From Deltaproteobacteria bacterium (GTDB taxonomy: Bacteria > Desulfobacterota > Desulfobaccia > Desulfobaccales > Desulfobaccaceae), in contig JAFDGA010000023.1 in NCBI GenBank assembly GCA_019309545.1, positions 1,320 to 65,319 on the forward strand: DNA of 64,000 nucleotides. The letters are read 5' to 3'. The first letter of the stretch is position 1; every line of letters starts with the position of its first letter. Position numbers and translations under genes: made by a program. This document shows positions 19,463 to 29,291 of the stretch, one piece after another. The notes beneath the pieces were generated by a model. That model searched no databases, had not been told where the DNA came from, and was given only the letters and a program-made list of their open reading frames with translations.

Positions 19463-22156
19463 TTAGCCTTTTTGAATCTGCACGGCGCAGACCTTGTATT
19501 CCGGGATTTTGGCCACGGGGTCGAAGGCGGCGATGGTGAGTTTGTTGGCCGCGGCCTCGCCATAGTGGAAGGGCACGAAGATGGTGCCGGGAATGGCCTT
19601 GGCCGAGATCTGGGCTTTGGCGGTGATTTCGCCGCGGCGGGAGCGCACCTTGACTCGGTCGCCCTCGCCAATGCCATAGCGGGCGGCATCTTCCGCAGCC
19701 AGCTCCACGAAACACTCCGGGGCCTTTTCCACCAGGCCCGCGGCCCGCCGGCTCATGGTGCCGGTATGATACTGGTACAGCACCCGGCCGGTGGTCAGGG
19801 TCAAAGGATATTCCGCATCAGGCAGCTCGGCCGGTTCGCGATGCTCAATGGCAAAGAACTGGCCGAGGCCGCGGGCGAATTTATCCTTATGGAGATATTT
19901 GGTGCCGGGATGATCGGTGGTGGGGCAGGGCCATTGCAGGCCGCCCTCGGTTTCCAGGCGGGCATAGGTGATGCCGGCATAGGAGGGGGTCACCTGGCGC
20001 AGCTCGTTAAAGATGGCCTCGGCATTGGCATAGTCCATGTCATACCCCAGCCGCCGGGACAGGTCGCAGATAATCTGCCAATCCGGACGCGACTGGCCCA
20101 CCAGGGGAACCGCCCGGCGGATCAGGGCCACCCGGCGCTCGGTATTGCTAAAAGTGCCCTCTTTTTCGGCAAACGAGGCCGCCGGCAACACCACATCGGC
20201 CAACTGCGCGGTCTCGGTCAGAAAGATGTCCTGCACCACCAGAAAATCCAGTTTCTTTAAAGCCGCGACCGCATGGTCGGAGTCGGGATCGGAAATTACC
20301 GGGTTCTCCCCCATGATATACAGGGCTTTGAGCTTGCCTTCGGGTATGGCGGGCAGCATGTCGGTCATGGTCATCCCCACATAATCCGGCAGGCCGGTAA
20401 CCCCCCAAGCATCCTCCATCTTCTTCCGGTTGGCCGGGTCGGTGACCGCCTGGTAGCCGGAGAAGACATTGGGCAGGCCGCCCATGTCGCAGGCCCCCTG
20501 GACATTGTTCTGGCCCCGCAGCGGATTGACGCCGCCGCCTTCAATACCGACATTGCCGCAGAGCATGGCCAGATTGGCCAGGGATTTGACGTTGTCGGTG
20601 CCGACGGTGTGCTGGGTGATGCCCATGGTATAGACGATGGCTGCGGCCGGGGCAGTGGCATAAAGCCGCGCTACCCGGCGCAACTGGTCGGCGGGGACGC
20701 CGCTGATCTGTTCGACATATTCCGGGGTGTATTTGGCCACCGTGGCTTGCAGGGCCTCAAAGCCCTCGGTGCGGGCGGCAATGTAGTCCTTGGCGTGGAG
20801 ATTTTCTTGAATGATGATATTCATCAGGCCATTGATCACCGCGATATCGGTGCCGGGGCGGTGGCGTACCCAGATATTGGCATGCCGTACCAAGTCGATG
20901 CGCCGCGGATCAATGACGATCAAGGTTTTATGCTTCAGGCGGGCTGCCCGTTTGATGCGGGCGGCGATCACCGGATGATTCTCTGTGGTGTTGGAGCCGA
21001 TCACCAGGATACAGTCGGTGTCTTCCAGCTCAGCAATGGAGTTGGTCATGGCTCCGGAGCCAAAGGCGGCGGCCAGACCGGCCACCGTGGAGCTGTGTCA
21101 GAGACGGGCGCAGTGATCGACGTGGTTGGTGCCGATCACCGCCCGCATGAATTTCTGAAACAGGTAGTTTTCTTCGTTGGTGACCCGGGCCGAACACCAG
21201 CCGCCGATCTTGTCGGCCCCGTCTTTTTCCTTGATTTTCTTGAGGCGTTGGGCCACCCGGTCCAGGGCCTCATCCCAACTGGCCTCCCGGAAGCTACCGT
21301 TCTCTTTGATCAACGGCGTGGTGAGGCGGTCGGGATGGTGCACAAAGCCCCAGCCAAAGCGGCCTTTGACGCACAGCCGGCCCTCGTTGGGAACCTCATC
21401 AGCGCCAGTCACCTTGACTATGCGACCGTCCTTGACCTGCAGGTCGATCTGGCAGCCTACCCCGCAATAAGGGCAGGTGGACCGGACCTTAGTACGCTCC
21501 CAGGGCCGCCCCTGAAAGCGGGCCGCCTTGTCCAGCAAGGCCCCTACCGGACAGGCCTGCACGCACTCCCCGCAAAAGACGCAATCGGCGTCGATATAAG
21601 GATAATCTCCGCGGGCGACGATCTTGTTGTGCGAGCCGCGGTAGCCGATGTCGATGGCCAGATTGACCTGGCGCTCGCAACAGGCCCGCACGCAACGGCC
21701 GCACATAACGCACTTGGAAAAATCCCGCACGATCATACTATTATTGTCTTCATAATAATACGCCGTGTCGGGGGGGTTGGCAAAGCTGGGGGTCGGCACC
21801 TGGTAGCGATAGGCCAAGGCCTGCAATTCGCATTCCCCATTGGCTTCACAGATCAGGCAGTTATGATTGCCGGAGGCCAGCAGCAGTTCGATGACCATCT
21901 TGCGGGCCGCGACCACCCGTTCCGACTCGGTCTGAACCACCATGTTGGCGGCGGCCTGGGTGGAGCACGCCGGCAGCAGGGTGCGGGCCCCCTCGACTTC
22001 GACTACGCAGACCCGGCAGGAGCCGGTGGGGGTGGTGCCTTTCAGGTAACACAGGGTGGGGATGTCAATTCCCGCCCCCCGGGCCGCCTCCAGGATGGTC
22101 TGGCCCGGCGTGAATTCTACGGTTTGTCCATTTATACTTAGAGTTGAATTGGCCAT
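19463..22156 (-). CDS. fdhA: formate dehydrogenase alpha subunit, selenocysteine-containing (NuoG-like Fe-S N-terminus plus molybdopterin domain)
   Basis: ORFs 21098-22156 and 19463-21085 are in the same frame and joined by TGA at 21098-21100. The junction reads [28 protein letters not shown], the conserved Sec/Cys active-site context of FDH-H-type enzymes. N-terminus carries 2Fe-2S and 4Fe-4S motifs. Confidence 0.9.
21068..21086 (-). promoter_or_regulatory. SECIS hairpin for Sec insertion in fdhA
   Basis: On the mRNA strand, GGUGGCC-GGUCU-GGCCGCC forms a 7-bp stem with a GGUCU loop. It starts 11 nt after the UGA, which is the spacing and loop type of bacterial fdh SECIS elements. Confidence 0.6.
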
Positions 22157-23631: not shown

Positions 23632-24879
23632 TCAGAGCCGCTGGTCGCGGCTGGCGTCGTAAAATATATTGTCTGGCTCCTGCTGGCCCAGCACCCGGCG
23701 GTAGGCCTCCACCATAAAGCCGGCGATGATCTGGTTGGTCATGATTACCGCGGGATCGGGACGGTACTGGCAAGAGGCCCGGGGGTGCGAGTGGGGGGCC
23801 GTCCGGCGCTGGCGCACGATCTCCGCCAACCCCAGCAGTTCCGCCGGGGTCCGGGTATGGCGGGCCGGATCATAAACCACCACCTGACCGGCGGCGACAT
23901 CGCTGCCGCCGCTGATCAGGATTTTCTGGTGAGCTTTACATAATTCACTCAGAATGATCCTAGTCTCAAAATTATCGACCCCGTCAAAAATTATCTGGTA
24001 CGGGGAGATATCGGTTTCCTGGTCTAAGGCGACCGGGAGGAACCGGCTATTGAGGCCGAACAACCGGTTCAGGCGGGCCGACAGAGCTTGGGCCTTGTTT
24101 TTCCCCAGGCCCTGGGAGAGAAACACCTGGCGGTTTAGATTGGTCATCTCCACCACATCCGCATCCATAAAGGTGAGGTTCGTCGCGCCCAGCAAGGCCA
24201 GCCCCAAGCCGATAAAATTGCCTAAAGCCCCGGCCCCCACCACACAGAGGGGGGGATGGCAGCGCGGGAGCGGCAGTGGCGGTCGCGCATAGGCAATCAC
24301 CTCTGGCGATACCGGCTGCCCCATGAGGATATTCTTGGTCTCTTCCAAGGCCAGCCCGGCAATGATGATGTTTAGCACGTCGTCATCAAAAGGCGCGGCG
24401 GGCAGGTTGCGGGGGGACAGCAACTGCTCCAGTTCCTGCCATTCCCGCCCCTTCAGATAAGTAAAGACCTTGAAGCCTTGCTGATCAGCCTGCTGGTAAG
24501 GGAAGCCGCGGATCACCGGCCGGGGGGCGCGGCCGTCTTGAGCCAGCAATAATTTGTTGGCCAACCCGTACTGACTGAGATCCACCAGCACCTGGCAACC
24601 AGTAAATAGGTCCTCCAGCACCGGGTGGGTGAAGTATCCGGGCAGATGGACCAGGCGCAGGTCAGGATTGACTTGGCGCCCAATGTCGATCAGGTGCGGC
24701 TCCAGACGGGGGGCGATGACTACTAGTTGATTCAGCCCCAGGGCCGCGGCCGACATCACGTACAGCGAGGCCAGGCGATCATCGTCGCCGACCACGCCGA
24801 TCCGGGCCGCCGCAAGTACCGCTTGATTCCAACCCGGGATGCGCAGTTGTCGATCCAGTCTTACCGACGTCGGCCGCAT
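23632..24879 (-). CDS. E1-like (ThiF/MoeB/UBA family) adenylyltransferase with tandem degenerate + active adenylation domains
   Basis: 415 aa. Residues ~205-415 carry the intact motifs VVGAGALGNFIGLGL, TNLNRQ and DNFETR. Residues ~8-200 repeat the E1 N-terminal pattern (RQLRIPGWNQAVLAAARIGVVG), but the glycine loop is replaced by GDDDRLAS. Its ATG overlaps the JAB stop (TAATG). Confidence 0.8.
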   Translation of the reverse strand: MRPTSVRLDRQLRIPGWNQAVLAAARIGVVGDDDRLASLYVMSAAALGLNQLVVIAPRLEPHLIDIGRQVNPDLRLVHLPGYFTHPVLEDLFTGCQVLVDLSQYGLANKLLLAQDGRAPRPVIRGFPYQQADQQGFKVFTYLKGREWQELEQLLSPRNLPAAPFDDDVLNIIIAGLALEETKNILMGQPVSPEVIAYARPPLPLPRCHPPLCVVGAGALGNFIGLGLALLGATNLTFMDADVVEMTNLNRQVFLSQGLGKNKAQALSARLNRLFGLNSRFLPVALDQETDISPYQIIFDGVDNFETRIILSELCKAHQKILISGGSDVAAGQVVVYDPARHTRTPAELLGLAEIVRQRRTAPHSHPRASCQYRPDPAVIMTNQIIAGFMVEAYRRVLGQQEPDNIFYDASRDQRL

Positions 24880-25676
24880 TACAATATTTCCAGCTTTTCC
24901 AGCTTATAGGTGATGGGATTGATTTTTTCCTTGACTTCCCCGGCCAAAGCGGCCAGTTCAACCGGCGTCAGGGACTGGCCATTGTCCACCAGGACGATCT
25001 CGGCGTTTTGGTGGCTCACCGTGGTCTGGCCCGAGAGGATGGCCCGCCGCTTGTAATAGATCTGCTGCTGATGCCAGCCCTCGTCGCCGATGACGATGCC
25101 GTAACTGAACCCACCGTAAATGGTTTCCAGGATCCGGGCTTGGGCCACCGGGACATCAGTAATCAGCGAGACGCTGCCTTGGGCTAAATCGGGCTCGGCG
25201 AACCGGTCGGCCACCAACAGGGTCAAGTCCTTGATCAAAATTTCTTTCTTGGCGATGGGCTTCTTAGAGAGGGCGGTGACATAATCGAGCACAGTGAGGT
25301 GATTCTGCTCATCAATGGCGGAGAAAGCATGGAACTCGAGTTCGCCATGCGAGTGAATCCAGCCGTTGATAAAGCGGTCGGCGGCCAGGGTTTCCTGAAA
25401 AGCGGCGATTTTCTCCGGGTCGATGCTGGTGTACTCCAAGACATTCTGTTCATTTTTGGGCAAGCCGATATCGATAATGAGCTCCGGGTTATCCCGCCGG
25501 GCCAGGGTATAGCCGTACCATTCATAACTGCTGTGGTGGATGGCTCCCACCAATTCGTTGATCTTAAAGGCCTTGGAGCGGGCGTAAGAGGTCATAGGAA
25601 TTTCCTGGGGCAAGGAGTCCAGGATGATCTCTTGCGCCACTGGGCGTTGCAGTTGTGACAGGCTTTTAAATCTCAA
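24879..25676 (-). CDS. JAB/JAMM (MPN+) metallopeptidase
   Basis: 265 aa. WIHSHGELEFHAFSAID (H-x-H-x8-S-x2-D) with a Glu (SSYEWYG) about 56 residues upstream fits the JAMM zinc site. The TTG start overlaps the AAA+ stop (TTGA); an alternative ATG is at 25595. The C-terminal ~125 aa are unassigned. Confidence 0.7.
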   Translation of the reverse strand: MRFKSLSQLQRPVAQEIILDSLPQEIPMTSYARSKAFKINELVGAIHHSSYEWYGYTLARRDNPELIIDIGLPKNEQNVLEYTSIDPEKIAAFQETLAADRFINGWIHSHGELEFHAFSAIDEQNHLTVLDYVTALSKKPIAKKEILIKDLTLLVADRFAEPDLAQGSVSLITDVPVAQARILETIYGGFSYGIVIGDEGWHQQQIYYKRRAILSGQTTVSHQNAEIVLVDNGQSLTPVELAALAGEVKEKINPITYKLEKLEIL

Positions 25677-26776
25677 TTTAATTTCATCCTGACATATCGC
25701 TCATCCACTACCAGCTTGCCAGTATGGCTGCCGGGCAGCCGGAACATATCCTCAAATAACACCCGGTGGATGATACTGATCAGGCCGCGAGCCCCGGTGC
25801 GTTCTTGTTTGGCCCGCTGGGCGATCACCTTCAAGGCATCGTCGACAAAGGTCAGCTCGATGCCCCAGGCCTTGAGGTCGTTGATATAGGCGCGCAGCGG
25901 ACTGTCTTCGCTTCTAATCATGATTTCCTGGAGTTCTTGCGTGGTTAATAAGTCATAGACAATTCTCACCGGAAAGCGGCCCATGAGTTGTCGTTCCATG
26001 CCAAATACTACCAGGTCCTCGGTCAGGAGATGATCCTGCCAATTGCCGCCGAAGCCATGGCGCTCCATCCGTTTTTCGACAATGGCGTCGAGCTTCTCGT
26101 AAACCCCGCCGGCAATGAAAAGCACGTGTTTGGTGGACAGGGTGATTCTTTCCTTGCCCATCTCAATGGTATTTTCCACTCCCTCCACCAGCTTTAAGAG
26201 GCCTTTCTGAACGCCGCGGCCCGATACATCCCGGTAGGCCACGTTCTCAGTGGCGATTTTGTCAACCTCATCGAGATAGACTATGCCCATCTGGGCCAAA
26301 TGAGGGTTGCCGGCGGCGGCGACCAGTAGGTCGGCCAGGATATCGCTGGTGTTCTGTCCGACATAGCCGGTTTCACTGAATTTGGTTAAATCTTCGACCA
26401 CAAAGGGAACCCCCACCAGTCCCGAGGCGGTTTCGCAGGTGTAAGTTTTGCCGCAGCCGGTGGGCCCGATCATTAACAGGTTGGCCTTGGGAGTTCGGGT
26501 GTGGCGCAGGGCGGCGCCGATGTCACCGCCGTCTTCGGCCAACATCTCTTTGAGGGCGTTGCCTAAGCGTTTATAGTGGAAGGCAATGGCGGTGGCGATA
26601 ATCTTCTTGCCTTTTTCCTGGCCGATCACAAACCGATCTAAATGCGCCTTAAAATCAGCCGGGGTTTTATCAAATTCGACGACCTGTTGAATGGCCTCGA
26701 GAGTTTGAGCTTCTCGTTGTTGCTCAATTTTCTCTTTGATCCGCCGCCGGCTTTCCTCTGATAATCTATCAAACAT
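25673..26776 (-). CDS. ClpX-family AAA+ unfoldase paralogue lacking the N-terminal zinc-binding domain
   Basis: 367 aa, collinear with the ClpX AAA+ module. Motifs: FVIGQEKGKK, Walker A GPTGCGKT, pore-1 loop TGYVGQN, Walker B IVYLDEVDK, DVSGRGVQKGLLKLVEG, sensor region TGARGL. There is no C4 zinc finger and no RKH loop. The IGF-loop position is shortened to RHGFGGN. Confidence 0.85.
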   Translation of the reverse strand: MFDRLSEESRRRIKEKIEQQREAQTLEAIQQVVEFDKTPADFKAHLDRFVIGQEKGKKIIATAIAFHYKRLGNALKEMLAEDGGDIGAALRHTRTPKANLLMIGPTGCGKTYTCETASGLVGVPFVVEDLTKFSETGYVGQNTSDILADLLVAAAGNPHLAQMGIVYLDEVDKIATENVAYRDVSGRGVQKGLLKLVEGVENTIEMGKERITLSTKHVLFIAGGVYEKLDAIVEKRMERHGFGGNWQDHLLTEDLVVFGMERQLMGRFPVRIVYDLLTTQELQEIMIRSEDSPLRAYINDLKAWGIELTFVDDALKVIAQRAKQERTGARGLISIIHRVLFEDMFRLPGSHTGKLVVDERYVRMKLN

Positions 26777-26846: not shown

Positions 26847-27278
26847 TTAGGCTCGGCCTGGTCCCCGGAGTCGCTTCCGCTGCCACAGGGTGAGAAAATG
26901 GAAGCGGCCCAGTAGTTCCGGGTTAAGAGCCGGATTTAATTTAAACAGCGGTCCACACAGCAGAATCTCGGCTGGGGAGTGCACGAACTGCAGGTAAGGA
27001 TTGTTGACTGCCGCGATAATTGCCATGGTCACTTGATATTCCGGGGCAGTACCCAGAGCAAACAGCGGAGGTTGGAAAAAAGCTTTGTTTGGCACCGGCT
27101 CGTGTGCAAAGATTTCCACCGGCCACTGCTCTAAGGGCTGATCGAGGAGGGCGACAAAGCTGTTCCCCAAGCCATAGGCCTTTACTAAAGTGCATATTCT
27201 GGTAAAAAGGCTGCATTGAAAAGGCGGTTTGTTTTTTCTCTGCGCCCTTTCCCCTCTTATTTGCTGCAATAGGGCCAT
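26847..27278 (-). CDS. hypothetical protein (operon-embedded, 143 aa)
   Basis: Its ATG lies 1 nt after the stop of the upstream 384-aa ORF (TGAtATG). I recognise no motif. Coding is inferred from the tight coupling within the cassette. Confidence 0.5.
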   Translation of the reverse strand: MALLQQIRGERAQRKNKPPFQCSLFTRICTLVKAYGLGNSFVALLDQPLEQWPVEIFAHEPVPNKAFFQPPLFALGTAPEYQVTMAIIAAVNNPYLQFVHSPAEILLCGPLFKLNPALNPELLGRFHFLTLWQRKRLRGPGRA

Positions 27279-27279
27279 A

Positions 27280-28434
27280 TCAGGTGTATCTGTTTTTTAC
27301 CTCGACCTGCCCGGAGACAATTTTGGGATGATCGGCGGAAATCCGGTAATCATCGAAATCGACGGTCCGAACATGCTGAGTTATGCGATCCAGACTGTGA
27401 TAACCGTTGCGGCGGCGACTGTTGTAACCATAATACAGGGCGTTAATGCCTTCCTCCAGGGCCTGGATGACATTTTCGGCAGTAAAGTTTTTGGTTGTCT
27501 CGTAATCGCCGGTGCAGATTTTCTGCCAGGAAGCGTAGCCGAACAGGAAGGGGTGTTTATATCTTTCCAGCACCAGGGGCTGTAGACCGGCCAGAGTGGA
27601 AACCGCCACCCGACAGTCGGGGAATAGATAAAAGCGACCATAGTAATCTTTGAGGACATATTCGCCGATGTGTTTATAGATGATGTATTCGTTGCTGAAG
27701 CCGGTTTTAAAAAACCCGAAGCCATCCACCTCTAATGAACCTTGCCGGGCTAGGGCGAGGAGAATTGGGAGATAAGTACTTTGGGTCCGGACCAGCTGTT
27801 GTCGTTCCGCCAGCGCCTGTCGGAGACGATCTCTTTCCTGATCAATTATATATTTTTCCAAAGCCAGGCGAAACCACTCGTACAACTGTGGGGCCAACAT
27901 CAAACCTTCTAAAGGTTCGGGTCTGGTTGCCGCAGTGGCTTCAAGCCTTGTCACTAAATTTTGCAGTAATTCTAAATCCAGCAGCTTATCTACCTTTTGG
28001 TCATCGATTTTGGAGATTTCCAGCTTCTCCCGCAGCAAATCCATTATTTCTGTTTCGGTAAGTGGTATTCTCTTTAAACCGGCTTTTCTTCTCAAAAAGT
28101 GGGGCATTACCTCGAAAATTATGGTTCTGACCTGACTATCGATAGGTAGATCATTGATCTCCGGATCATGGCCAAATTTCTGTAAACCGGCCCGCCGCAG
28201 TTGCTGATAGGAGGTGGGGTGGATTTTTTCGTAGTTTTCCACCAGGGAGGCCAAACTCAAGGTTTTGACAAACAGCTTTCCCGCCCTGGCAATTAGGGGG
28301 CTACCAGGGGGTGGCGTGAACTGACCATCCGAGTTCTGAACTTCGCAAGCTATTTCCGGATCAAACAGTAGTGGTAGATAGATAAAGCCGCCTTCTATGA
28401 CAATCTCAAGATTTGATTCCAGCAACTGTTGCAT
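27280..28434 (-). CDS. hypothetical protein with candidate E2-like (UBC-fold-like) C-terminal region
   Basis: 384 aa. Residues ~235-345 read as strand-rich segments (FYLFPDCRVAVS, PLVLERY), then HPF (294-296), then Cys307 (QKICTG; codon 27514-27516) 10 residues later, then a helix (TAENVIQALEEGINALYYG). This is the order seen in E2 catalytic cores. It is pattern-level evidence only. Confidence 0.45.
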   Translation of the reverse strand: MQQLLESNLEIVIEGGFIYLPLLFDPEIACEVQNSDGQFTPPPGSPLIARAGKLFVKTLSLASLVENYEKIHPTSYQQLRRAGLQKFGHDPEINDLPIDSQVRTIIFEVMPHFLRRKAGLKRIPLTETEIMDLLREKLEISKIDDQKVDKLLDLELLQNLVTRLEATAATRPEPLEGLMLAPQLYEWFRLALEKYIIDQERDRLRQALAERQQLVRTQSTYLPILLALARQGSLEVDGFGFFKTGFSNEYIIYKHIGEYVLKDYYGRFYLFPDCRVAVSTLAGLQPLVLERYKHPFLFGYASWQKICTGDYETTKNFTAENVIQALEEGINALYYGYNSRRRNGYHSLDRITQHVRTVDFDDYRISADHPKIVSGQVEVKNRYT

Positions 28435-28478: not shown

Positions 28479-29291
28479 CTAGTTTAAAGTTAACCTCATC
28501 ATATAGAAACTATCATTATTTTCATGATCGAGGGAAAGCACCTTCATAATTTGAAAGCCCAGGCGCTCATAGAGTTTTACTGCGCCGATCTTAACCAGCT
28601 CAACGTCTAATTCTACATATTTAACCTTTTTTTGCTTGAAGTTAGCGATACAGTTTTCAATTAACGCCGTCGCGATGCCCTTCCCTCGATGCTCGGGATG
28701 CACTGCGATCCTCAAGATCACCGCTCGGTGGCCTAGTTCACAGATACAGCCGATCAGGTAGCCTAAAATTTCTGTTGTTTCAAATATATAAAATAAGTGG
28801 TTCAGGGCCTGGCGAAAATTATGGTATTCCCAGAAGTCCAGGAAGGATAGCCGATCGATTTCCAGGACTTTATCCAGATCGCTCTCCGTAGCCATGCGGA
28901 TGTAATTACTGTAATTGCGATAAGGTCTACCTCCTTCTTGAGGTTTGATGGCCCGCACCGGCACGTAGAGATATTGTTCTCCGACTTCAGTTTCCTGCAC
29001 TTCGGCATAATCTCTAGCCTTGCCGTCAACCTCTCGACCTCTGCAGAGCAACTTGCCACCGGCCAACTGTCTTTTAATGTCTTCAAGGACTTGTTGTTCT
29101 TCGATGCTCCAATTGGTTTTACTTAAGGTTTCTTCACACAGCTTCCGGAGCGGTTTACCCTCGTAACTGCCGGGCTCGAAAATCTCGATTAACCCTTCTC
29201 CGGCCTGTCCCGGCATGATTTCGATCACCAATGATTGCGGCTGTGCCCGTTCAGCCGGTTGCTCAGCTTTCTTTGATTCTATTTCGGTCAT
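28479..29291 (-). CDS. fusion protein: N-terminal ubiquitin-like (beta-grasp-like) module ending in Gly-Gly + C-terminal RimI-like GNAT acetyltransferase
   Basis: 270 aa. Residues ~135-270 are a clear GNAT (ILRIAVHPEHRGKGIATALIE, VELDVELVKIGAVKLYERLGF). Residues ~20-121 show a Ub-like pattern (LVIEIMPG..GLIEIFEPG, long helix, KLLCRGREVDGKARDYAEVQ, YLYVPVRAIKPQEGG) with GG at residues 120-121 (28929-28934). AAGAGG RBS. Confidence 0.6.
   Translation of the reverse strand: MTEIESKKAEQPAERAQPQSLVIEIMPGQAGEGLIEIFEPGSYEGKPLRKLCEETLSKTNWSIEEQQVLEDIKRQLAGGKLLCRGREVDGKARDYAEVQETEVGEQYLYVPVRAIKPQEGGRPYRNYSNYIRMATESDLDKVLEIDRLSFLDFWEYHNFRQALNHLFYIFETTEILGYLIGCICELGHRAVILRIAVHPEHRGKGIATALIENCIANFKQKKVKYVELDVELVKIGAVKLYERLGFQIMKVLSLDHENNDSFYMMRLTLN

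Follow-up and report, generated by a model that had tools for sequence, protein, structure and literature searches.

Introduction

Single-chain E1 enzymes, in which an inactive adenylation domain (IAD) and an active adenylation domain (AAD) are joined as a pseudo-dimer, have long been regarded as a eukaryotic hallmark, with BilD of a defence system as one bacterial case. The related enzymes MoeB, ThiF and UbaA are homodimers with one domain per chain, two active sites and a CxxC zinc motif. A cysteine placed directly on the crossover loop is also found in UBA5, ATG7, MOCS3 and UbaA. The structure of BilD (Bil, Bacterial ISG15-like; PDB 8tyz/8tz0) follows the order IAD-AAD-CYS, with the IAD giving Arg9 to the AAD site, and in BilD as in eukaryotic E1s the IAD contributes one arginine to a single active site (PMC10557695). 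The present report deals with a stretch of 64,000 nucleotides (hereafter, the window) from a Deltaproteobacteria bacterium of the family Desulfobaccaceae (assembly GCA_019309545.1, contig JAFDGA010000023.1, positions 1,320 to 65,319 of the forward strand) and with an E1 gene located at 23632..24879 in it. Predicted structure and sequence support this E1 as a single-chain pseudo-heterodimer with an inactive N-terminal domain and an active C-terminal domain, and the best overall explanation, which we consider likely, is that it serves a ubiquitin-like (Ubl-like) conjugation operon.

An initial annotation, made from the sequence alone, had described the domain pair as eukaryote-like. The premise that this architecture is restricted to eukaryotes does not hold, as the bacterial BilD is already an IAD-AAD-CYS protein (PMC10557695).

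The E1 gene and its homologues

The E1 gene is an open reading frame (ORF) with an ATG start, encoding 415 aa with an inactive and an active adenylation domain in tandem. The coordinates and length given by the initial annotation (23632-24879, 415 aa) are correct and only the strand has to be changed to minus, which is the strand of all features of the window described below. The ATG shares bases with the stop of the upstream JAMM-like gene (TAATG), and the JAMM-like gene overlaps its own upstream neighbour by 4 bases. Owing to these start/stop overlaps of neighbouring genes, the E1 gene is considered the final gene of a tightly packed minus-strand operon.

A database search yielded 872 relatives of the E1, of which the best 120 have ~413 aa each, are 55-100% identical and come from metagenome-assembled genomes (MAGs) of Desulfobacterota, NC10 and Binatia, with "ThiF family" as their sole annotation. 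Conservation was counted in an alignment of 42 homologous sequences with 55-83% identity, to which all residue counts for the E1 refer. Residues R7, R10, Q11, G31, D34, G215, G217 and G220 are invariant in it, and likewise D239, D241, N247-Q251, K262, D299, D302 and C370. The motifs quoted earlier from the sequence are all present, namely RLDRQLRIPGW (aa 7-17), GDDDRLAS (aa 31-38, contained in the stretch IGVVGDDDRLAS at aa 27-38), GAGALG (aa 215-220), NLNRQ (aa 247-251), DNFETR (aa 302-307) and RASCQY with Cys370; because they are invariant or nearly so in the alignment, they are not chance features.

Predicted architecture of the E1

The full-length AlphaFold2 model of the E1 has a predicted local distance difference test (pLDDT) score of 85.4 and a predicted template modelling (pTM) score of 0.90, with low confidence only at aa 1-4 and 361-374. 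When the model was compared with the PDB by Foldseek, the top 50 matches were tandem IAD/AAD E1s throughout, and the best of them were UBA7 (8oif_A, E 8e-17, query TM-score (TMq) 0.66), UBA6, UBA1 and the bacterial BilD (8tyz_A, E 5e-15). As the TMq of 0.66 is larger than the share of the C-half (49% of residues), the match has to draw on both halves at once, and the model thus has the pseudo-dimer layout of E1s. Structure prediction and comparison with single-chain E1s thus agree with the earlier proposal that one chain carries two E1-type domains as an IAD/AAD pseudo-dimer. The model has neither an insert corresponding to the first and second catalytic cysteine half-domains (FCCH/SCCH) nor a ubiquitin-fold domain (UFD) at its C-terminus, with the chain stopping ~7 residues past the last strand, and no CxxC zinc motif is found in the E1 sequence.

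The N-half, designated as IAD (aa 1-200; 24280..24879), finds no match in the Pfam, NCBIfam or PADLOC libraries. However, among all PDB sequences its profile has a single significant match, E. coli MoeB (1jw9_B, E 2.3e-4), and the alignment extends over profile positions 4-158 and MoeB residues 10-186, from the RYNRQ motif to the TVFTY strand. The motif RLDRQLRIPGW (aa 7-17; 24829..24861) corresponds in this alignment to the E1 N-terminal helix, with R7, R10, Q11, I14, G16 and W17 all invariant, and its R10, a candidate arginine finger, pairs with MoeB R14 of the RYNRQ motif. The position of the GxGxxG loop, GLGGLG in MoeB, is occupied by the degenerate nucleotide loop GDDDRLAS (aa 31-38; 24766..24789), in which the GDxD loop residues are themselves kept (G31, D34 and S38 in 42/42 sequences, D32 in 41/42). 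Moreover, the ribose Asp, NLxRQ and the Mg aspartate (DxxD) are missing from the N-half as aligned to MoeB. The profile, the AlphaFold2 model and the Foldseek comparison together support the N-half as a degenerate adenylation domain that has lost nucleotide binding. The MoeB profile match and the tandem-E1 structural matches also speak against an unrelated N-terminal fold, an outcome that had been named as decisive against the architecture. The two halves are conserved to the same degree, with pairwise identities that average 0.66 (N-half) and 0.67 (C-half); the inactive domain is not decaying.

The C-half, designated as AAD (aa 211-415; 23635..24249), matches the Pfam family ThiF (PF00899) on aa 212-402 (E 1.3e-27, 97 bits; cut-off 28.1, passed), which is the only part of the E1 covered by Pfam and NCBIfam. 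Its sequence is nearest to the ThiF/MoeB models, with NCBIfam scores of 70 bits for TIGR02356 (cut-off 275) and 68 bits for MoeB (cut-off 266), so the equivalog level is not reached. The set of ATP/Mg site residues, comprising GxGxxG, the ribose Asp D239, NLxRQ, K262, D302 and R307, is complete in the AAD and absent from the N-half. The ATP-binding glycine loop GAGALG (aa 215-220; 24220..24237) has invariant G215, G217, A218 and G220, and the E1 phosphate-binding motif NLNRQ (aa 247-251; 24127..24141), invariant as well, aligns to MoeB NLQRQ. DNFETR (aa 302-307; 23959..23976), which holds the Mg/ATP aspartate D302, aligns to MoeB DCTDNVAVR; here D299, V301 and D302 are invariant, and N303, F304, E305 and R307 are each kept in 90% or more of the sequences.

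The two halves of the E1 differ in the parts of MoeB to which they align. The C-half hidden Markov model (HMM) scores 63.9 bits against MoeB in an alignment from MoeB residue 30 to 168, and with the C-half starting at residue 30 and the N-half at residue 10, the AAD is left without a counterpart of the RxxRQ helix. Because the AAD has the catalytic residues without the helix and the N-half has the helix, the two halves are considered mutually dependent. As judged from the sequence, Arg10 of the IAD probably completes the ATP site of the AAD.

The crossover loop (aa 337-377; 23749..23871) is ~41 aa long and without an inserted CYS domain, containing two short helices only in the model, where pLDDT drops to <50 at aa 361-374. 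It carries Cys370 (23770..23772), which was proposed earlier as a candidate catalytic (thioester) cysteine. Its invariance (42/42) and its location at the C-terminal end of a flexible crossover loop are consistent with this candidate role. The context of Cys370 in the alignment is R-A-S/A-C-x-Y-Q/R-P-D-P, and the residue persists in the E1s encoded by L087 (PQSCILAPQPSV) and L088 (NAGCIYQPDPSV), two operon variants that are only distantly related. We take Cys370 to lie about at the position of MoeB Cys187 and ThiF Cys184, by position along the chain, as the HMM alignment ends at MoeB residue 168.

Comparison with described E1 families

The eukaryotic E1s (UBA1, UBA6, UBA7; NAE1-UBA3, SAE1-UBA2) share with the E1 of the window the IAD/AAD pseudo-dimer and the single active site, and they provide its best structural matches. 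However, FCCH/SCCH, the coiled-coil insert and the UFD are all missing here, and the chain has 415 aa instead of ~1000 aa. Membership of the canonical UBA1 type was thus rejected, with the IAD/AAD pair present in the predicted structure and the cysteine-domain insert and UFD absent.

The likeness to BilD includes the Ubl/E2-like/JAB/E1 gene order and the Foldseek match (E 5e-15), and it may extend to an IAD arginine directed to the AAD (Arg9 in BilD; the candidate Arg10 here). BilD has a mobile helical CYS domain of ~80 aa and a four-Cys zinc site (PMC10557695). The E1 of the window instead carries one invariant Cys on a crossover loop of 41 aa, and a zinc motif is absent. Sequence similarity is marginal, as BilD is not among the PDB sequence matches. 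The PADLOC BilD model gives a partial match of 15 bits (E 0.0016), and the protein, although built as IAD-AAD, was not assigned to BilD given the absent CYS domain and zinc cysteines. Furthermore, the operon here includes two genes beyond the Bil set, for a ClpX-like AAA+ ATPase and for a 143-aa protein, and from its distribution it seems to be inherited vertically, unlike a defence system.

MoeB, ThiF and UbaA are most similar to the AAD in sequence and resemble it in a cysteine at the end of the crossover loop, a likeness by position only. They differ in forming homodimers from chains with one domain each, in having two active sites and in their CxxC zinc sites. Here, a catalytically dead second domain is part of the chain, and no arginine-finger helix of its own is left in the active domain. 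MoeB/ThiF proper was rejected, with scores far under the equivalog cut-offs, two E1-like domains per chain and no CxxC. The Bub E1s (BubCD/BubBD) are fused to a JAB or E2 domain, use a catalytic tyrosine of the crossover loop and have a DUF6527 partner (PMC11601596). Likewise, membership of this group was rejected, as JAB is a separate gene here, the Cys is invariant and the operon has no DUF6527 match. The E1 of the window is best described as the smallest IAD-AAD E1, with its cysteine on a loop, and as a variant distinct from BilD, Bub, MoeB/ThiF and the canonical E1.

Composition and distribution of the operon

In one scan of GTDB species representatives, the E1 was encoded by 144 species and 80 loci were kept. 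These are mostly from Desulfobacterales, Syntrophobacterales and Desulfobacca. Also represented are Binatia and Methylomirabilales, a single Acidobacteriota MAG and a cultured organism, Desulfoferrobacter suflitae DRH4. Partners were counted by tblastn of the window proteins against 86 loci, on the same strand as the E1. A small protein, encoded by the N-terminal part of a 270-aa ORF, was found in 73 of the 86 loci, followed by a 143-aa protein (66), a 384-aa protein termed p384 (65), the AAA+ ATPase (65), JAB (61) and a 110-aa protein that is absent from the window (47). The gaps are mostly on short contigs. The genes occur in two orders, which are circular permutations of one another, and are flanked by housekeeping genes that differ from genome to genome. 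Cross-phylum identity is 55-60% for the E1 and ~65% for the small protein. A promoter/terminator scan of the operon gave counts at the shuffle-expected level.

Two divergent variants, L087 (Logan SRR7589087) and L088 (GCA_964362835.1), do not have the AAA+; each encodes a GG-ended protein, a protein resembling p384, a long JAB protein and an E1 of the tandem kind. Their GG-proteins end in ...EGG plus a tail. In their E1s, which are 420 and 500 aa long, the N-terminal E1 domain is again degenerate and the loop cysteine is kept. Since these variants keep the same genes in the same order, the core cassette is, as far as gene content tells, modifier / HPF...C protein / JAMM / tandem E1, and the variants suggest a wider superfamily of such cassettes. 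PADLOC assigned neither variant to Bil or Bub. The order modifier / E2-like / JAB / tandem E1 is that of BilA-B-C-D (PMC11601596). In L087, a Ser/Thr protein kinase gene and a cytidylyltransferase-like gene come after the cassette.

The operon was not found described in a full-text literature search, which did not cover the 2009 E1 survey (PMC2732565), so an earlier description is possible. Iyer et al. 2006 make no mention of AAA+ or tandem E1, and no operon coupling such an E1 to a ClpX-derived AAA+ came up in NCBIfam or PADLOC.

Some loci carry further genes. A protein with a metallo-beta-lactamase (MBL) fold and tetratricopeptide repeats (TPR), matching Anti-Pycsar_Apyc1 of Pfam, and proteins of ~139, 97 and 90 aa form a second module in 14-23 of the 86 loci (L002 602..3009; L001, L010, L022, L028, L043, L050, L054, L060, L062, L079-L081). 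The module is sometimes on the opposite strand and its small proteins are without family matches. The cluster genes p110, MBL-TPR, p139, p97 and p90 are all absent from the window. Additionally, one Binatia MAG (M3-S_metawrap_bin.153) has two complete operons on two contigs (L010 and L012), with E1s 60% and 58% identical to that of the window; these are either paralogous operons or mixed strains.

Partner proteins of the E1

The Ubl-like small protein corresponds to aa 1-121 (28929..29291) of a 270-aa ORF (28479..29291) and, by the homologue alignment, ends in ...RAIKPQEGG (GG at 28929..28934). In the window, a RimI-like GNAT domain (28482..28907) follows in frame after the GG, with a Pfam Acetyltransf_1 match of E 6.7e-18 and a TIGR01575 rimI score of 61 bits, which is under its cut-off. 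The small-protein family has 611 homologues of 121-195 aa. All members share P117, Q118, E119, G120 and G121, after which comes a tail of 0 to ~70 unrelated residues, one member (P0263) stopping exactly at GG. An invariant PQEGG with a variable tail is the signature of a ubiquitin-like precursor requiring peptidase trimming. The Ubl-like/GNAT fusion is also present in the close relatives L006 to L008, and recalls the eukaryotic fusions of ubiquitin to ribosomal proteins. In two NC10 loci (L056 and L058), the GNAT has a gene of its own, placed between those for JAB and the E1.

The 384-aa protein p384 (27280..28434) is a candidate E2 by its model and invariant residues, with HPF at aa 294-296 (27547..27555) and Cys307 at 27514..27516. 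Its AlphaFold2 model (pLDDT 81) has a long helix, a beta-meander, the HPF...C loop and a helix, an order of elements that appears UBC-like, corresponding to the UBC fold minus its last two helices. A profile search among 1.84 billion representatives found 204 relatives, some of 420-590 aa sharing only the C-terminal domain. In p384 and its distant relatives, Y292, H294, P295 and C307 (Y-x-H-P-F...I-C), a Gly and a Phe are kept in at least 97%. The two distant relatives in L087 and L088 sit between the GG-protein and JAB plus tandem E1.

The putative JAMM/JAB-like peptidase of 265 aa (24879..25676), whose stop overlaps the E1 start, has the zinc motif E...HxH...S..D and a weak Prok-JAB match (E 0.0043, 17.3 bits, under the cut-off of 25). 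The motif residues, E52 and H108-S-H110...S119..D122, recur in 98% or more of 59 JAMM-like orthologues. The protein at the JAB position in L087 passes the Prok-JAB threshold with 34.7 bits, and is related to that of the window by motif and operon position only.

The ClpX-like AAA+ ATPase of 367 aa (25673..26776) scores 268.6 bits against NCBIfam ClpX, aligned from model position 37 and under the cut-off of 359. The Walker A/B motifs and the GYVG pore loop are conserved. Compared with the E. coli ClpX sequence, it is without the zinc-binding domain and has 7-aa and 15-aa deletions at the RKH and IGF loops. It was thus not accepted as ClpX proper, considering the score, the missing domain and the deletions. 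Docking of ClpP is doubtful because the IGF loop is deleted, and no protease partner is evident. With its presence in 65/86 loci, the AAA+ ATPase is, by sequence and synteny, a ClpX paralogue dedicated to the operon.

The conserved 143-aa protein (26847..27278) has no family matches in Pfam and NCBIfam, and its gene is always between the p384 gene and the AAA+ gene. The 110-aa protein (L002 4949..5281) is encoded directly upstream of E1 in many loci and has no detectable family. Both proteins could be adaptors of the AAA+ ATPase.

Another feature of the window

A gene of the formate dehydrogenase alpha type (19463..22156) appears split into 352-aa and 540-aa ORFs by a single in-frame TGA (...HCARL-TGA-HSSTVAGL...). 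As the TGA is at the selenocysteine position of FdhF-type enzymes, it is probably a selenocysteine codon, and the gene not a pseudogene.

Proposed mechanism and alternative explanations

Support for the reading of a single-chain pseudo-heterodimeric E1 within a Ubl-like conjugation operon is confined to the E1 architecture, by predicted model and sequence; the remainder is deduced from residues that do not vary and from the gene order kept across loci. In such an operon, the JAMM peptidase would trim the precursor of the small protein and expose ...PQEGG, a cut which here would also free the RimI-like acetyltransferase. The E1 would adenylate the terminal Gly of the small protein, and Cys370 on the crossover loop would accept it as a thioester. 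The small protein may then move to Cys307 of p384, acting as the E2, and thence to targets. The conjugates would be substrates of the ClpX-like AAA+ ATPase, perhaps with the 143-aa protein, and of the JAMM peptidase, leading to their unfolding or extraction and to loss of the tag.

A more specific version may be put forward tentatively, as a possibility that falls somewhat short of an even chance. It holds that the operon represents an undescribed, vertically inherited housekeeping (not defence) Ubl-like conjugation system of Desulfobacterota, Methylomirabilota and Binatota. Its parts would be a GG-modifier, sometimes made as a Ubl-GNAT precursor, a minimal IAD-AAD E1, a novel HPF...C E2-like enzyme, an Rpn11-like JAMM and a dedicated ClpX-derived unfoldase. 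Such a system would parallel, in bacteria, the ubiquitin/Cdc48-proteasome logic.

Several results weigh against the conjugation reading as a whole at different steps. The small protein, whose beta-grasp fold is putative, has no significant match in a PDB profile search and a per-member Pfam scan, and hhalign against ubiquitin/NEDD8 and ThiS/MoaD gave no significant match either. The link of the E1 to the GG-protein is a putative one, drawn from gene context. For p384, no match was obtained in Pfam (family members and distant relatives), PADLOC and PDB sequences (phmmer and profile). Foldseek placed an E2 as its top match and at least four of the listed matches are E2 structures, none of them significant (best E 1.6). 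Additionally, hhalign against six E2 sequences aligned HPF...C with HPN...C with a non-significant E of 0.3-0.44. By sequence and model, p384 is thus a probable but unproven E2 which lacks statistical support.

Within the E1 itself, the hhalign comparison of the N-half and C-half is colinear over 156 columns and weak (E 0.066), and the N-half HMM gives 18.9 bits to MoeB and <0 bits to its own C-half, so a recent internal duplication is not claimed. Cys370 falls in the least confident region of the model, and Tyr372 is conserved in 39/42 sequences. In Bub E1s, a crossover-loop tyrosine forms an oxyester (PMC11601596). As Tyr372 is conserved and Bub E1s use a loop tyrosine, the acyl acceptor (Cys370 or Tyr372) is uncertain.

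The operon might instead act in anti-phage defence of the Bil, Bub or CBASS (cyclic oligonucleotide-based antiphage signalling system) kind, with a Ubl conjugated to phage proteins and the AAA+ as accessory effector. Such a role would account for the core order Ubl / E2-like / JAB / tandem E1, which is that of BilABCD (PMC11601596), for BilD being among the closest structures to the E1 model, for the weak PADLOC matches on the AAD to the E1-E2 (Cap2) and BilD models, and for the MBL-fold and TPR protein (Anti-Pycsar_Apyc1 match) nearby in 23 loci. However, PADLOC has no match for the Ubl, p384 or JAB, and its BilD match is partial (E 0.0016). Unlike sporadic, fast-evolving defence islands, the E1 has a lineage-coherent spread over the 144 species representatives from Desulfobacterota, NC10 and Binatia. 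With this spread, the high conservation across phyla (E1 55-60%, Ubl ~65%) and the differing housekeeping flanks, a defence role is considered unlikely.

A second alternative is the activation of a sulfur carrier, in which the GG-protein would become a thiocarboxylate donor for a metabolite or tRNA, like ThiS, MoaD, CysO and QbsE, and JAMM would only trim, like QbsD and Mec+. Known sulfur-carrier pathways likewise pair a GG-ended small protein with a JAMM peptidase, the AAD sequence is nearest to the ThiF/MoeB models (TIGR02356 70 bits, MoeB 68 bits), and no significant E2 match was obtained for p384. These NCBIfam scores are nevertheless all far under their cut-offs, and the small protein of ~120 aa is bigger than ThiS or MoaD. 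Moreover, the conserved neighbours do not include a rhodanese, a cysteine desulfurase or any enzyme of a biosynthetic pathway; an AAA+ unfoldase and the protein with the invariant HPF...C signature are conserved instead, and a sulfur-carrier role is therefore improbable. The view that the protein is an ordinary homodimeric MoeB/ThiF with an unrelated N-terminal extension, suggested by Pfam and NCBIfam seeing only aa 212-402 and by an N-half HMM that fails to score the C-half, is contradicted by the N-half profile matching MoeB over the whole domain, by the full-length model lying on tandem E1s with a TMq above the one-domain maximum and by the RYxRQ helix, which acts in trans in homodimeric E1s, being absent from the AAD but retained in the N-half, and hardly deserves consideration.

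Significance

If read as a Ubl-like conjugation operon, the locus resembles the archaeal SAMP/UbaA/JAMM system with the proteasome and the Pup-Mpa-proteasome system. The components in common would be a small protein used as a tag, an enzyme that activates or ligates it, a peptidase for deconjugation and an unfoldase of the AAA+ type. In contrast, SAMP and Pup have no tandem E1 and no HPF...C protein, and their unfoldases are PAN, Cdc48 and Mpa, not a ClpX paralogue.

The E1 family of the window represents the most stripped-down form of its kind, a pair of adenylation domains plus one cysteine on a loop, and is found across many anaerobic bacteria in a lineage-coherent pattern. The functions of a MoeB homodimer appear to be divided between its halves, the arginine finger in one and the ATP site in the other, which would make it a clean model for the origin of E1 asymmetry. 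If conjugates of the GG-protein are indeed handed to the ClpX-like unfoldase and the JAMM peptidase, the operon would offer a tractable bacterial analogue of tag-dependent unfolding.

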